A stretch of DNA of 64,000 nucleotides from the NCBI GenBank assembly GCA_963843455.1, contig CAWJKE010000007.1, positions 102,501 to 166,500 on the forward strand, read 5' to 3'. Numbering within the stretch: position 1 is the stretch's first letter; every line of letters begins with the position of its first letter. The position numbers and the translations under genes are program-made. The notes under the pieces are model-generated. The model ran no database searches. It was not told the origin of the DNA and saw only the letters and a list, made by a program, of their open reading frames with translations. Of this stretch, positions 4,274-39,879 are shown piece by piece. This stretch comes from an uncultured Actinomycetota bacterium. GTDB taxonomy: Bacteria > Actinomycetota > Thermoleophilia > RBG-16-64-13.

Positions 4274-5218
4274 TCAGCGACCGGCTTTTGGGCGCCGTGT
4301 GAGCCGGTTCACGAGCAGGTAGATCAAGGTCCCCAGTATCGCCAGGAACGCCACCGCCGCCCAGCCGAGGCCCAGTAGCACCACGATCGCGCCTGTCGGA
4401 AGGCCCACCGGCCCGTCCGGCGGCAGGCGGCGAGTGGTGCTGGTGCTGGTCAGAGTAGTCGTCGTGGTCACCGAAAGCCCGGCCTGCTCCAGAAGGGGCT
4501 GCCACCGGGTCCTCTCGAGACCCACATCGAAGGGCATCGGATACTGCACGCCGCCGGAGCCCACCGTGAGGGTCTGACCGGCCGTGGCCGGAACTCGCGC
4601 GTCGCCGGCCGCGGGAAGCACCTTCACCGGTCCGTCGAGGACCTTCACCACCGAGGCGTCTTGCGACGCGCCGAAGCTGAAGCTACCCGCCTCCAGGGCC
4701 GACACGGTCGCGTGGGGTAGAGCGATCGCGTCACGCTGGTTCAGGGTCACGTAGTCGAAGCGCACCCACGCCTCTCCCGCAAGCACGGCCAACCGTAACT
4801 TCGCTCCCGGCGGCAGGATCTGGATGGTCGTGCCCGGCTTCACGGCCGCCACACTGTGGTCTTCGAAGGCGAGGACACAACCGCCGTTGGGGCCCGTTCT
4901 AAGGAGTGATTCTCGAGGGAGCCTAGATCCCAACGACGGAGTTGCCCAGGTGACTCCTCCGTCGGTGCTGTGCTCCACCTGCCCGGACATGAAGCCGACC
5001 AGAGGGGGGACCTCGCGGATATTCGGCTCCGGAGACCATGCGTGGGCGGCGCCGGCCCCTGCGAGGGCCGGCCAGGCGACCAGGCAGAGGCCGACGACCA
5101 GCAAGGCTCGCGAGAGGCGCGGGTTCCGAAAACGCCGGTGTCGGAAGAGCGGCTGCGTTGCCCTTGCCTCCTGCGTATCCGAAGCGATGGTCACCTGAGG
5201 GCAAGTGACTTCTTTCAA
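4274..5218 (-). CDS. FecR-domain protein with C-terminal membrane anchor
   Basis: Central region (ILPPGAKLRLAVLAGEAWVRFD...) resembles FecR sensor domain; poly-Thr linker; C-terminal TM helix. Confidence 0.45.
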   Translation of the reverse strand: MKEVTCPQVTIASDTQEARATQPLFRHRRFRNPRLSRALLVVGLCLVAWPALAGAGAAHAWSPEPNIREVPPLVGFMSGQVEHSTDGGVTWATPSLGSRLPRESLLRTGPNGGCVLAFEDHSVAAVKPGTTIQILPPGAKLRLAVLAGEAWVRFDYVTLNQRDAIALPHATVSALEAGSFSFGASQDASVVKVLDGPVKVLPAAGDARVPATAGQTLTVGSGGVQYPMPFDVGLERTRWQPLLEQAGLSVTTTTTLTSTSTTRRLPPDGPVGLPTGAIVVLLGLGWAAVAFLAILGTLIYLLVNRLTRRPKAGR

Positions 5219-5386: not shown

Positions 5387-6367
5387 ATGTTGCGGCGTCG
5401 GGTTCTCATCCTGGTTCTTGGGGTGCTCGTTGCGTTCCTGGTGGCCGGCATGCTCGCTCCGGTGGCCTTGGCCGGACGGATGGCCGTCCCCGTTTGGAAG
5501 CAGAGCGACTCCCGCTGGGCCAGTCTCCACCTCGGCAGCAGCTCTTACACCATGTCCGGCTCTGGCTGCGCCGTCACGGCATGTGCCATGGTGGCCTCAT
5601 ACTTCGGCTCCTCCAAGGATCCGGGCGGGCTCTGCAAGGCGCTCAGCTCCGCTGGGGGGTTCACATCCGGCGGGGCCATCTACTGGCAGAGCGTGCCTAA
5701 GGCCGCGGGGGGCACCATCAGCTATGTCGGCCGCTGGGACTCCTGCTCTCTCACCCGGATCAACCAAGAACTGGACTCCGGCTATCCGGTGATAGTCCAG
5801 GTGAGCCTGAAGGGATCCACTCACTTCGTGGTCTTGACCGGCCGCGACGGCTCCACCTACTACATCAACGATCCCGGCTACGGCGACCAGACCACCCTCA
5901 ACGCACGCTATGGCACGCCGAGCACGGCCATCAAGGGGTTCCGCGTCTACCGCGGCACCCACGCGGCTCCCCCGCCACCAAGCCCGTACACCCGCTACCA
6001 GCAGACCGACTCCCACCTGGTGTATGCGGGAACCTGGTACACGTTCTCGACGAGCGGTCCCTCCGGTGGCAGCTACAAGCGGGCCGACACCAGCGGAGCC
6101 TCGGTCACGGCGACGTTCACCGGCACCTACCTGGCCTGGATCGCCACCGCGGGGACCACCCTGAGCAAGGCCTATGTGTCTTTGGACGGCGGGACCCCCG
6201 TCAATATCAACCTCGCGAGGACCGCGGTGGCCTATCAGCAGAAGGTGTGGAACACCGGTACCCTCGCCACGGGCAAACACACCGTCAAGATCTGGTGGGA
6301 CCTGGCCAATGCAGCCGGCAAGTTCATCAGCATCGATGCTTTCGACCTGCTGGGAGCTCTCAACTGA
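5387..6367 (+). CDS. secreted peptidase C39-like cysteine peptidase with C-terminal beta-rich module
   Basis: Signal peptide. Cys motif (GSGCAVTACAMVASYFG), His (THFVVLTG) and NDP as in C39-like/BtrH-like peptidases. C-terminal ~95 aa module (SGGSYKRADTSGASVTATFTGTYLAWIA...VSLDGGTPVNINL...GKHTVKIWW) is homologous to the four repeats in 36970-38868. Confidence 0.6.
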   Translation: MLRRRVLILVLGVLVAFLVAGMLAPVALAGRMAVPVWKQSDSRWASLHLGSSSYTMSGSGCAVTACAMVASYFGSSKDPGGLCKALSSAGGFTSGGAIYWQSVPKAAGGTISYVGRWDSCSLTRINQELDSGYPVIVQVSLKGSTHFVVLTGRDGSTYYINDPGYGDQTTLNARYGTPSTAIKGFRVYRGTHAAPPPPSPYTRYQQTDSHLVYAGTWYTFSTSGPSGGSYKRADTSGASVTATFTGTYLAWIATAGTTLSKAYVSLDGGTPVNINLARTAVAYQQKVWNTGTLATGKHTVKIWWDLANAAGKFISIDAFDLLGALN

Positions 6368-36415: not shown

Positions 36416-36969
36416 GCACTCTCCTCTTCAGCAGCCTGTTAGACCGTGCCCGGATTGTACCGCCCTGGAGGCGCATTATGGGCGCAGGGCGCGTGGTAGA
36501 GACCGTACGGTCGGCTGGCCCGCTTGGACGCGCGCCACCCCTCTTGCCTATACCTCCAGCGACTGCGTGAGCGAGATGGCCTACATCGCTACGACGGACC
36601 TGGAAAGCCTCGCCCCCTACCGCGCGCTGCTTGGTCGCGCGAGGTCTGTTCAAATCCAGTAGCGCCCACTTATCATGAACCAGAGCCCCATCCTGGTCGG
36701 TTTGCATGGTACGCACTGGACAAGGCAGGCAATGTCTGGTGCCTGGGCGGAGCCACTGCTACCCCGCCGCGTCAGCCAGAGCCACCGCACCGGTTCGACG
36801 ACGGTCATCTCTCCGGACCCCCTCGCGGGGGCCTTTCCTTTGCGCCCCGGAGTTCATATTATGGTTAGACAGTAGCCTTCACCCGGTCTGCGCTGATGAC
36901 TGACCTGAGGGAAAGGCGCCAAAGCAGTCCGGCTGGTGCGTCGGACGGCAGGATCAGAGAAGAGATGAT

Positions 36970-38868
36970 ATGAAGAATTCCTCCCGCGTCCCGACTGAGG
37001 CCGGGTGTGGCCGACGGTTCCTCGTTGTGGTTGCGGCCATTGTTGTGTTCGCCGCCGGTTGGATTGGGCTGGGGTCGATTACGGCCGATGTGGCACAGGC
37101 AGCGGCGGATGTCACTCGCTACGGCGTCGACTACTCCATGACGAACGTCGACTGGCCGGTATTCTTTAGTGAGCTCAAAGCTTCAGGGCGCGATTTCATC
37201 GGGCGCTATCTGCCATCGCCCGGATCGACGTGGCGGCAGGTCACTACTACCGAACTCAAGGCGGCAAGGGCCGCCGGCGTCGACTTCTTCTTCTGGTTTG
37301 AGGATTCCCGCAACCACTATCGGGCACGTGACGGCGGTTTCGCGGCCGGGGTGGCAGATGCTCAGGAAGCTCTGCGCGCCCTCGCGAGCCTTGGAGTTCC
37401 CAGCACGACCCCCGTCTACTACACGGTGGACTATCCCGCCGCGGATGGCAGCGAGATTGACCAGTATTTCCGCGGCGTCGTGTCGGTGGTGCCCGTCGCT
37501 CAAGTCGGCGCGTATGGCAACTACACCACAATCGATTGGCTGTATCAGCGCCGACTCGCGACCTACTTTTGCGAGTCCAACGCGTGGCCTGAACCACAAG
37601 GCTGGCACCCTCAGGCCCAGATGCGCCAGAACGTCAGCAGCTTCTACGTTGGCGGCGTCCATGTAGACAGGCTCACTGTGACGACGGCCGATTTCGGGCA
37701 GTGTCGTCGCTACGAGCAGTCCGACCCCCGCCTCTTCTTCTCCGGCACCTGGACCACCGGAACAAGCACCTCCTACTCCGGCGGCTCCTACGCGTACACG
37801 AACAAAGCCGGCTCCTCGGTCACCCTCGCCTTTTCCGGCACCAGCCTGGCCCTCATGGCCAAGAAGAGCCCGAGCCAGGGCAAAGCCTCGGTGTCGGTGG
37901 ACGGCGGCACCCCGGTCAGCGTCGACCTCTACCGCTCCGCCACCGCCTACAAGCAGACGGTGTTCTCGACCACCCTGCCCGCCGGTCTCCACGTGGTCAA
38001 GATCACCCGAGCCGGTACCAAGAACGCCCGCTCCAGCGGCTACACCGTCAACCTGGACGCCGCCTCCATCGTGGGCAGCCTCACCACCTTCACGAGAGCC
38101 GAACAGTCAGACACCCGCCCCACCTACTCCGGCTCCTGGTCGACCGCGTCTAACTCCGGGGCCTCCGGCGGCACATGGAAGTATATGAACGCCTCCGGCG
38201 GCTCGGTGACGGTGCCCTTCAAAGGCACCTCTCTGGCCTGGGTGACGGTGAAGAGCCCCAACTACGGCATAGCCCAGGTGACGCTGGACGGCGGTACCCC
38301 GGCGAGCGTCGACCTCTACAGTGCGAGCACCCTCTGGCGGCAGAACGTATGGAACACCGGCACCCTTCTCGCCGGCCCGCATACCGTCACCATCGCCTGG
38401 ACCGGGGAGAAGAACCCCGCGGCCGCGGGCACCTACATCGGCGTGGACGCCTTCGAGGTGGTGGGCGCCCTGACCGCGGGCACCCGGGTGGAGGAGACCG
38501 ACTCTCATATGGTGTGGGCCGGGACCTGGACCCCGGCCGCAAGCAGCCTCTACTCCGGAGGCAGCTTCAGCTATGCGAACACCTCCGGGGCTTCGGTCAC
38601 CATCAATTTCACCGGGGTGAAGCTGAGTCTCATCGGTACCACGGCCTACTCCTACGGCAAGATGAAGGTGACCCTGGACGGTACCACCACCTCCATCATC
38701 GACCTCTACACCCCCGCCGCCCTCTACAAGCAGACCATGTACTCCACCGGCCTGCTTCCTCTCGGCGACCACTGGGTCACGCTCGAGTGGACCGGGGAGA
38801 AGAACTCCCTCTCCAGTAACGCCTATGTGAGCCTCGATGCGGTGGATGTGATCGGGTGGCTGAGATAG
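36970..38868 (+). CDS. secreted DUF1906 (Rv2525c-like glycoside-hydrolase-like) domain protein with four C-terminal ~95-aa beta-rich repeats
   Basis: Signal peptide; N-domain YGVDYSMTNVDWPVFFSELKASGRDFIGRYL...AARAAGVDFFFWFE like DUF1906 / lysin-type TIM barrels. Then 4 repeats each with W.T....SGGSY.Y.N..G.SVT..F.GT.L.L......G...V.LDG.T......Y.......Q........L..G.H.V.I...G.KN. Confidence 0.55.
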   Translation: MKNSSRVPTEAGCGRRFLVVVAAIVVFAAGWIGLGSITADVAQAAADVTRYGVDYSMTNVDWPVFFSELKASGRDFIGRYLPSPGSTWRQVTTTELKAARAAGVDFFFWFEDSRNHYRARDGGFAAGVADAQEALRALASLGVPSTTPVYYTVDYPAADGSEIDQYFRGVVSVVPVAQVGAYGNYTTIDWLYQRRLATYFCESNAWPEPQGWHPQAQMRQNVSSFYVGGVHVDRLTVTTADFGQCRRYEQSDPRLFFSGTWTTGTSTSYSGGSYAYTNKAGSSVTLAFSGTSLALMAKKSPSQGKASVSVDGGTPVSVDLYRSATAYKQTVFSTTLPAGLHVVKITRAGTKNARSSGYTVNLDAASIVGSLTTFTRAEQSDTRPTYSGSWSTASNSGASGGTWKYMNASGGSVTVPFKGTSLAWVTVKSPNYGIAQVTLDGGTPASVDLYSASTLWRQNVWNTGTLLAGPHTVTIAWTGEKNPAAAGTYIGVDAFEVVGALTAGTRVEETDSHMVWAGTWTPAASSLYSGGSFSYANTSGASVTINFTGVKLSLIGTTAYSYGKMKVTLDGTTTSIIDLYTPAALYKQTMYSTGLLPLGDHWVTLEWTGEKNSLSSNAYVSLDAVDVIGWLR

Positions 38869-38949
38869 GGGCTGGGTTCAAGAGGTCAAGTCGTGACGAT
38901 TCTGGACCCTAGGCCTGAACGTACGTGTTCGAGAACCAGTGCTGGGTGG

Positions 38950-39879
38950 ATGCCATGGCCGGGAACTCGACCCGGATCAGGGGGATTCGATGAAACGCTG
39001 GGTATTGGTCATGTCCGTCTCGTAGGCATCTGCCTAGCCTCGCTTCTGGTATTGCTCGCTTTGGTCCTGGCCGCCTGCGGGGCAGGTGTCGCAGATACGG
39101 GCAGCGCCTCGAAGACCGGTACATCTACTGCCTCAGGGACGACCGCCTCGTCTGGAGACGCAACCGCAGGCTCCTTGCCGGTCCCCGTGAGCAGTGGCCA
39201 GGAGGGGATGTGGGACACCACCACGACGACGGGCAACGGCCGGGCGGACCTCTATTGTTCTGTGTCGTTCGCGGCGTCGCCGCCGAAAGACTTCGTGAGC
39301 GTGAGCCTCTTCAACGAGGCCGGGGAGATGGTCGACCGGCGGGCCGGCATGCCATTCAGCTTCGAGGGGCTCCAGCCGGGGAAGTACCGTCTGGGCGCAT
39401 CCGGTGAGGGCACAGGCTACATCTCGCAGTGGTACGGGGGCCTGCCGACACAGGGACATGACATATCCGAGTCCCAGGTTCTCGAGCTCAAGCCCGGGCG
39501 GAATGTCGCCGAGTTCGTGCTACAGCCGGGCCTCAGCATCCAAGGGGAGGTGTCGTGGACCCAAGGGACCCAGCTGAGCGGATACATCCAGATTTACGAC
39601 CTGGAGCATCGCGACACGGGGCGGGGAGCCTCAATCGGGGGAGGAACAAGCCCTATGCAGCCCGGCACCGGCTACCTCTTCCTTATCGTCGGCCTGCTCC
39701 CCGGGCGGTATAGGATCGGCGCCAGCTTCGACACCAATGACCTAGCACCTCAGGTATGGGACGGCGGTGGGTCGTTCGAGGACGCACCCGTGATCAATCT
39801 GACATCTGGTGACGTCGCGGGTATCCACGTGGAGCTTGGTGTGCTTCCGAGTACTACGACGACCGGCAGCCCTCACTAA
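38950..39879 (+). CDS. lipoprotein (hypothetical)
   Basis: Signal peptide with lipobox LAACGAG, Ser/Thr-rich linker, no recognised domain. Start chosen at first in-frame ATG giving a plausible signal. Confidence 0.4.
   Translation: MPWPGTRPGSGGFDETLGIGHVRLVGICLASLLVLLALVLAACGAGVADTGSASKTGTSTASGTTASSGDATAGSLPVPVSSGQEGMWDTTTTTGNGRADLYCSVSFAASPPKDFVSVSLFNEAGEMVDRRAGMPFSFEGLQPGKYRLGASGEGTGYISQWYGGLPTQGHDISESQVLELKPGRNVAEFVLQPGLSIQGEVSWTQGTQLSGYIQIYDLEHRDTGRGASIGGGTSPMQPGTGYLFLIVGLLPGRYRIGASFDTNDLAPQVWDGGGSFEDAPVINLTSGDVAGIHVELGVLPSTTTTGSPH

Follow-up and report, generated by a model that had tools for sequence, protein, structure and literature searches.

CE2_N-like jelly-roll modules at the C-termini of two secreted proteins from an uncultured Actinomycetota bacterium, with a possible role in glycan binding

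In CE2 esterases such as CjCE2C (2waa) and CtCE2 (2wao), a jelly-roll domain lies N-terminal to the SGNH/GDSL esterase domain with its Ser-His dyad, is fixed against this catalytic domain, and is not a cellulose binder. In the peptidoglycan O-acetylesterase Ape1 (8gld), a CBM35 domain is built into the SGNH active-site cleft. Carbohydrate-binding module (CBM) families 35, 6, 36, and 84 are proven binders that are appended to enzymes; their partners are polysaccharide depolymerases, and a review assigns the xanthan-binding modules of the Microbacterium enzymes MXL and MiXen to family 84 (PMC10881899). The SLH (PF00395), CWB2 (PF04122), LysM, and SH3b domains occur as repeats, often in tandem or in threes, at the ends of NlpC/P60, amidase, M23, and DUF1906 enzymes. 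Here, we describe a module that was found at the C-termini of two secreted proteins encoded in a 64,000-nucleotide stretch of DNA (the window) from an uncultured Actinomycetota bacterium (contig CAWJKE010000007.1, positions 102,501 to 166,500). Protein A has a C39-like cysteine peptidase head and one module copy (copy A), and protein B has an Rv2525c/DUF1906-like head and three copies (B1 to B3).

The module and the N-terminal jelly-roll of the CE2 esterases shared a significant match to one hidden Markov model (HMM), but the window module was C-terminal, tandem, linker-detached, and borne by peptidase and glycoside-hydrolase-like heads. A GDSL domain was present in only one of 66 sampled relatives. 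Whereas the CBM35 domain of Ape1 is part of the active-site cleft, the window module was separated by a linker and shuffled among heads. Like the appended CBMs, it was a noncatalytic appendage; unlike theirs, its partners were wall-remodeling enzymes. Its placement resembled that of SLH, CWB2, LysM, and SH3b, but these domains have a different fold and are not homologous to the module. Indeed, no Pfam match to SLH, CWB2, LysM, or SH3b was found in the module, so the likeness was one of architecture only. SLH or CWB2 often occurred in one protein with the module, and the ligand or role of the module is probably different from theirs.

Extent, family, and fold of the shared module

An earlier note on the window, made from its letters alone, had proposed that both proteins end in a homologous module, and BLASTP bore this out far beyond chance. 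The tail of protein A matched three stretches of protein B: residues 374 to 501 in B2 (46% identity, E 2e-37), residues 247 to 371 in B1 (44% identity, E 4e-30), and residues 505 to 631 in B3 (43% identity, E 3e-29). The four copies were 42 to 46% identical to one another. The motifs that had been listed for the module were recovered in the four-way alignment as G-x-W, SGGS, SVT-xx-F-x-GT-x-L, V-x-(L/V)-DGGTP, (Y/W)-(Q/K/R)-Q, and G-x-H-x-V. The size and copy number required correction. An HMM that we built from the four window copies, and used for module boundaries and for copy counts in relatives, gave a unit of about 127 residues (range, 125 to 130) instead of about 95, and it delimited three tandem copies in protein B (residues 245 to 372, 373 to 502, and 504 to 632) instead of four. 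A six-frame tblastn search of the 64-kb window found no module copy beyond copies A and B1 to B3. The features of the two genes were as follows (the R and Y types are defined below).

5387 to 6367, plus strand: gene A, secreted C39-like cysteine peptidase with one C-terminal module, 326 residues (open reading frame list; PF13529)
5387 to 5476, plus strand: signal-like N-terminus of protein A, residues 1 to 30, with RRR, a hydrophobic core, and ALA-G (read from the sequence; Kyte-Doolittle maximum 3.1)
5474 to 5971, plus strand: C39-like papain-fold head of protein A, residues 30 to 195, with Cys61, His146, and Asn161/Asp162
5963 to 5986, plus strand: Pro-rich linker AAPPPPSP of protein A, residues 193 to 200 (read from the translation)
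5984 to 6364, plus strand: module copy A, residues 200 to 326, R-type CE2_N-like jelly-roll
36970 to 38868, plus strand: gene B, secreted Rv2525c/DUF1906-like protein with three C-terminal modules, 632 residues (open reading frame list; PF08924; CE2_N)
36970 to 37104, plus strand: signal-like N-terminus of protein B, residues 1 to 45, with G-R-R-F-L-V, a hydrophobic core, and AQA-A (sequence reading; hydropathy)
37165 to 37701, plus strand: Rv2525c-like glycoside-hydrolase-like head of protein B, residues 66 to 244 (PDB 4pmq/4pmn; Pfam)
37702 to 38085, plus strand: module copy B1, residues 245 to 372, Y-type (own HMM, E 1.2e-61)
38086 to 38475, plus strand: module copy B2, residues 373 to 502, Y-type (own HMM, E 3e-65)
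38479 to 38865, plus strand: module copy B3, residues 504 to 632, Y-type (own HMM, E 1.2e-65)

The earlier note had called the module uncharacterized and had not been able to place it in a known CBM or SH3 family from sequence alone. A search with the Pfam HMMs placed it in family CE2_N (PF17996): all four copies matched (best E 3.4e-06), and each copy alone gave an E value of about 1e-5 to 1e-6. Protein B scored 54.5 bits over three stretches, which was above the gathering score of 27.9. Protein A fell below that score (24.9 bits for the whole protein and 26.3 bits for the isolated copy), but its match was significant (E 8e-6). Because single copies lie just under the CE2_N cut-off, precomputed Pfam calls missed most of them (P0409 to P0449). 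Architecture counts based on such calls are therefore misleading, and censuses that use precomputed Pfam annotation under-count the module. Among the 66 top family representatives, 65 matched CE2_N at E <= 1e-5. In NCBIfam, the module resembled the CE2 esterase AxeC2 only weakly.

Structure prediction yielded a CBM-type beta-jelly-roll. The AlphaFold model (predicted local distance difference test score, 97.2) was superposable on the CE2 N-domain, and its fold was the one common to the CBM35/CBM6/CBM36 superfamily. This places the module among the beta-jelly-rolls of the galactose-binding-domain-like superfamily (CE2_N/CBM35/CBM6 type). No SGNH/GDSL domain was matched in proteins A and B by Pfam or NCBIfam, and the two proteins are not CE2 enzymes. 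No CBM_35 (PF16990) match was found in the four window copies at E <= 10, and only two of the 66 relatives matched this family. Among solved structures, the xanthan-binding module MiXBM (7ehg) matched the module profile weakly (E 0.0013), and the two had ASGG, G-x-H, and terminal (L/I)-D motifs in common. Identity to the CBM35, CBM6, CBM36, and CBM84 jelly-rolls was 10 to 22%.

Both heads that had been named in the earlier note were identified by Pfam. Peptidase_C39_2 (PF13529) matched residues 34 to 163 of protein A (E 2.4e-14); the score was above the cut-off, the fold was papain-like, and the catalytic Cys and His were conserved. The head is related to a C39-like peptidase of Bacillus anthracis (3erv), whose own activity is unproven. 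A Shine-Dalgarno sequence (GAGGTGG) was located 5 nucleotides 5' of the gene A ATG. In protein B, the Rv2525c_GlyHyd-like/DUF1906 domain (PF08924) matched residues 68 to 229 (E 7.8e-22; 78.8 bits versus a cut-off of 27.2), and Mycobacterium tuberculosis Rv2525c (PDB 4pmq) aligned with about residues 66 to 244 (E 6.6e-15). Rv2525c is a homologue of this head, but it is a single-domain protein without a module tail. Its enzymatic (peptidoglycan glycosidase) activity is itself not established (PMC10480492). Both Rv2525c and Cg0955, its homologue in Corynebacterium, are substrates of the twin-arginine translocation (Tat) pathway (bioRxiv 10.1101/2025.07.02.662783), and the N-terminus of protein B, with G-R-R-F-L-V ahead of a hydrophobic core, is possibly compatible with Tat export. 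Both heads may be wall hydrolases, that of protein B being a putative muramidase.

An alignment of 806 nonredundant modules, in which position 1 is P200 of protein A, revealed several nearly invariant positions. W18, H99, and D118 were each conserved at 99%, G61 at 98%, and G47 at 97%; F45 and D68 followed at 96%, G124 at 95%, and S27 at 88%. Four tightly covarying positions (33, 58, 60, and 78) split the family into two subtypes. The Y-type (Y33/P58/Y60-G61/D76-L-Y78) formed long homotypic arrays, and the R-type (R33, 94%; T58, 85%; L60, 72%; (G/S)61; (D/N)76; A78) mostly occurred in one or two copies. The module of protein A was R-type (R33/T58/L60/S61/N76/A78), as were those of its closest orthologues, and B1 to B3 were all Y-type (Y33/P58/Y60-G61/D76/Y78). 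Hence, the two proteins have the same tail, as the earlier note had put it, only at the family level.

Family size, partner domains, and exchange of tails

When 1.84 billion cluster representatives (50% identity clusters) were searched exhaustively with the module profile, 15,906 of them matched at E <= 1e-3, of which 7,502 also passed E <= 1e-10. Up to 14 stretches were matched per protein, and giant proteins with 8 to 14 copies reached 5,149 residues. The copy number ranged from 1 to 14 among 467 module-bearing proteins that were fetched, and in 385 of 465 proteins no more than 10 residues followed the last module. In the 66 top representatives, the Pfam partners included NlpC/P60 (five proteins), Amidase_3, YkuD, and CAP (four each), PG_binding_1 and PD40 (three each), and SpoIID (two); M23, polysaccharide deacetylase, CWB2, GH3, GDSL, and S8 were found once each. 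Full-length searches with proteins A and B returned modules that were 55 to 84% identical on other heads. Among the matches listed, the heads of close relatives were C39-like (about 23 clusters), CAP/YkwD (about 47), SpoIID (9), M23 (6), and NlpC/P60 alone or together with CWB2 (about 20), and Amidase_3, YkuD, M28, and DUF1906 heads were also present. The relatives that could be recovered in their genomes all came from metagenome-assembled genomes (MAGs) of uncultured Actinomycetota in soil-type metagenomes, and one MAG had at least three module-bearing loci. An exact match to protein A was not found in the contig index.

Comparison of close relatives showed that tails move between the C39-like and DUF1906 head families. 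One relative with a C39-like head (P0277) was 65% identical to protein A overall, and its two modules were 76% identical to B2-B3 in a gap-free, colinear alignment. Thus, one two-module cassette serves both C39 and DUF1906 heads, and the tandem copies of protein B are old, position-specific paralogues rather than products of recent duplication. In another relative (L001), a head that was 89% identical to that of protein A was followed by two modules only 47 to 48% identical to copy A. Four further C39-like relatives had a head that was 66% identical to that of protein A up to residue 195 (in the SLH-tailed P0329, the similarity stopped at this residue), with SLH from residue 205 and no module. 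The finding itself is correct but ordinary domain shuffling of a fold that public models already recognize, in a context unlike that of the founding CE2 enzymes.

The nearest folds to the module were those of actinophage minor tail and tail-fiber proteins. The idea that phage lysins carry the module was rejected, because a tblastn search of 50,697 phage genomes gave no match and only fold-level tail matches and three fiber-like IMG/VR loci were obtained. At one of these viral loci (L017, 3974 to 5956), a 660-residue protein started with one module copy of about 29% identity and continued as a long Ser/Ala/Gly/Thr-rich repetitive region that was tail-fiber-like. A cluster of a different kind was observed on a 1.78-Mb MAG contig (L016, 3757 to 12123), where four adjacent wall-protein genes lay beside a split heliorhodopsin gene; they encoded an M23 protein with the module, an NlpC/P60-CWB2 protein with the module (1,096 residues), a CWB2 protein, and a module-only protein (653 residues).

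Possible roles of the module

In the best explanation, to which we give about an even chance, the module is a portable, self-folding, noncatalytic unit for glycan binding or targeting to a cell-envelope polymer. After export, one or more module copies would bind an envelope glycan (peptidoglycan strands or a secondary wall polymer), the bound module would hold or orient the attached head on its substrate, and tandem copies would add avidity. This reading is based on the CBM-type fold, the conserved polar and aromatic positions, the terminal tandem arrays, and the wall-enzyme partners, as well as on the tail shuffling, the replacement by SLH in C39-like relatives, the actinophage tail fold matches, and the viral fiber-like protein. 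The earlier note had argued from different heads with a common tail to a targeting module. The occurrence of a portable unit on unrelated heads and the predominance of peptidoglycan-active domains and wall anchors among its partners agree with that proposal; the binding of a glycan, or of any ligand, is what we infer.

Several observations weighed against envelope targeting. The earlier note had named similarity to a known nonbinding domain as the result that would speak against its proposal, and the nearest family, CE2_N, is not an established stand-alone binder, since cellulose is not bound through the jelly-roll in CtCE2, and in CjCE2A this domain does no more than lengthen the catalytic cleft (PMC2661963). 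Our literature search found no report of PF17996/CE2_N as a wall module and none of carbohydrate binding by this subfamily, and the two heads are only putative wall hydrolases. The commonest partner in multicopy proteins was TIG (14 of the 66 top representatives), a pairing that would suit a structural role just as well, and the commonest partner of the protein A subtype was CAP/YkwD (about 47 of the 120 matches listed), which is not clearly a wall enzyme. In addition, precomputed Pfam strings had suggested that SLH replaces the module across the DUF1906 family, but this was rejected when our own HMM showed that 26 of 37 SLH-bearing DUF1906 relatives also kept one C-terminal module (SLH-DUF1906-module); nine of the 37 were entirely without it. 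The replacement argument is therefore limited to the four C39-like relatives and these nine module-less proteins. SLH and the module usually co-occur in the DUF1906 family and are therefore not anchors that substitute for each other. Their ligands or roles probably differ, and the function of the module may lie outside anchoring.

Retention of the module beside SLH anchors would also suit an accessory domain that assists catalysis, as in CE2 and Ape1; here, the module would pack on the head, its loops would extend the substrate cleft, and extra copies would be secondary. This explanation, which we judge to be unlikely, is most plausible for B1, where hardly any linker separates the module from the DUF1906 domain (residue 244 to residue 245). 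It is difficult to reconcile with a module that was found on at least a dozen unrelated heads and on either side of them, with the Pro-rich linker that parts module and head in protein A, and with the quite different tail on the L001 head. The two-module cassette common to C39 and DUF1906 heads points the same way, and arrays of up to 14 copies cannot all reach an active site. Such arrays in giant proteins would instead favor an inert spacer or surface-array block, that is, a rigid beta-sandwich bead that projects heads or builds surface proteins without a ligand; the frequent TIG, Big, and fn3 domains alongside, and the lack of proven stand-alone binding by CE2_N, fit this idea too. We regard it as rather improbable, given that Trp, His, and Asp were near-invariant, that the four-position switch resembles a change in specificity rather than neutral drift, that a single-copy tail spaces little on an enzyme as small as protein A, and that SLH stood in place of the module in C39-like relatives.

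If the module does bind a glycan, the glycan could be foreign, from other organisms or from soil organic matter (a fungal or plant polymer, or a competitor's wall), in which case proteins A and B would serve foraging or antagonism instead of remodeling of the cell's own wall. Most characterized fold neighbors bind exogenous xylan, mannan, xanthan, or glucuronate-containing glycans, the partners included M28, S8, GH3, and CAP, and the source was a soil metagenome lineage. However, the YkuD L,D-transpeptidase, SpoIID, and Amidase_3 partners, together with the SLH and CWB2 self-wall anchors, pointed to the cell's own envelope, and no glycoside hydrolase families for plant or fungal polymers were present among the sampled partners. 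We therefore hold this to be the least probable of the explanations considered.

A broader form of the envelope-binding reading is possible but doubtful. In this form, the CE2_N-like subfamily would be an unrecognized major class of wall-polymer-binding repeats, parallel to SLH, CWB2, and LysM, that organizes much of the secreted wall enzymes of uncultured soil Actinomycetota; the four-residue switch (Y33/P58/Y60/Y78 versus R33/T58/L60/A78) would set two ligand-specificity classes, and the subfamily would count as a new CBM family whose ligand is a bacterial envelope glycan. Were envelope glycan binding true, the module would be a very abundant addition to SLH, CWB2, LysM, SH3b, and PG_binding (more than 15,000 clusters at 50% identity) and would help to annotate thousands of "hypothetical" secreted proteins of uncultured Actinomycetota. 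Fusions of the module to green fluorescent protein would then offer a way to probe wall chemistry in lineages that resist cultivation.

Neighboring genes and a near-identical strain

The G+C content of the window was 64.5%. Gene A was flanked by genes for a divergent FecR-like membrane protein, a DUF3465 protein, a muconolactone-isomerase-like protein, and a nitroreductase, and gene B by genes for a HIT protein, a nitroreductase, and an unannotated membrane protein. An operon link for gene A or gene B was rejected, because the neighbors were functionally unlinked and were not kept beside the C39 gene in L001. The divergent membrane protein gene (4274 to 5218, minus strand), whose product has a C-terminal transmembrane segment and a weak FecR match below the cut-off (E 1.2e-4), was not found beside the gene A orthologue in L001.

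An open reading frame of 328 residues (38893 to 39879, plus strand) begins 25 nucleotides past the gene B stop and is probably cotranscribed with gene B. Its product had no Pfam match and contained a transmembrane segment, a Ser/Thr-rich stretch, and two internal repeats, GKYRLGASGEGTGYISQWYGG and GRYRIGASFDTNDLAPQVWDGG. On the 5' side of gene B, an unusually long noncoding stretch of about 550 bp was observed (36416 to 36969). A riboswitch or other known RNA in this position was rejected, since Rfam gave no hit at the gathering score in the whole window and none at E <= 1 between 36400 and 37000.

One protein that was 98% identical to protein B and 129 residues shorter (P0384) was considered as a two-module allele and rejected; its gene call is cut short at the N-terminal end, and the protein aligned with residues 140 to 632 of protein B and had all three modules. 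A near-identical strain (L014; 98 to 100% amino acid identity) kept the 328-residue open reading frame beside gene B at 93%. In this strain, a 3.1-kb insertion that carried a methyltransferase gene and a CitMHS transporter gene was located between the HIT gene and gene B (window 36672 to 36704; L014 1202 to 4346). The L014 copy of gene B was split by an apparent frameshift near residues 140 to 148, with the N-terminal part in another frame.
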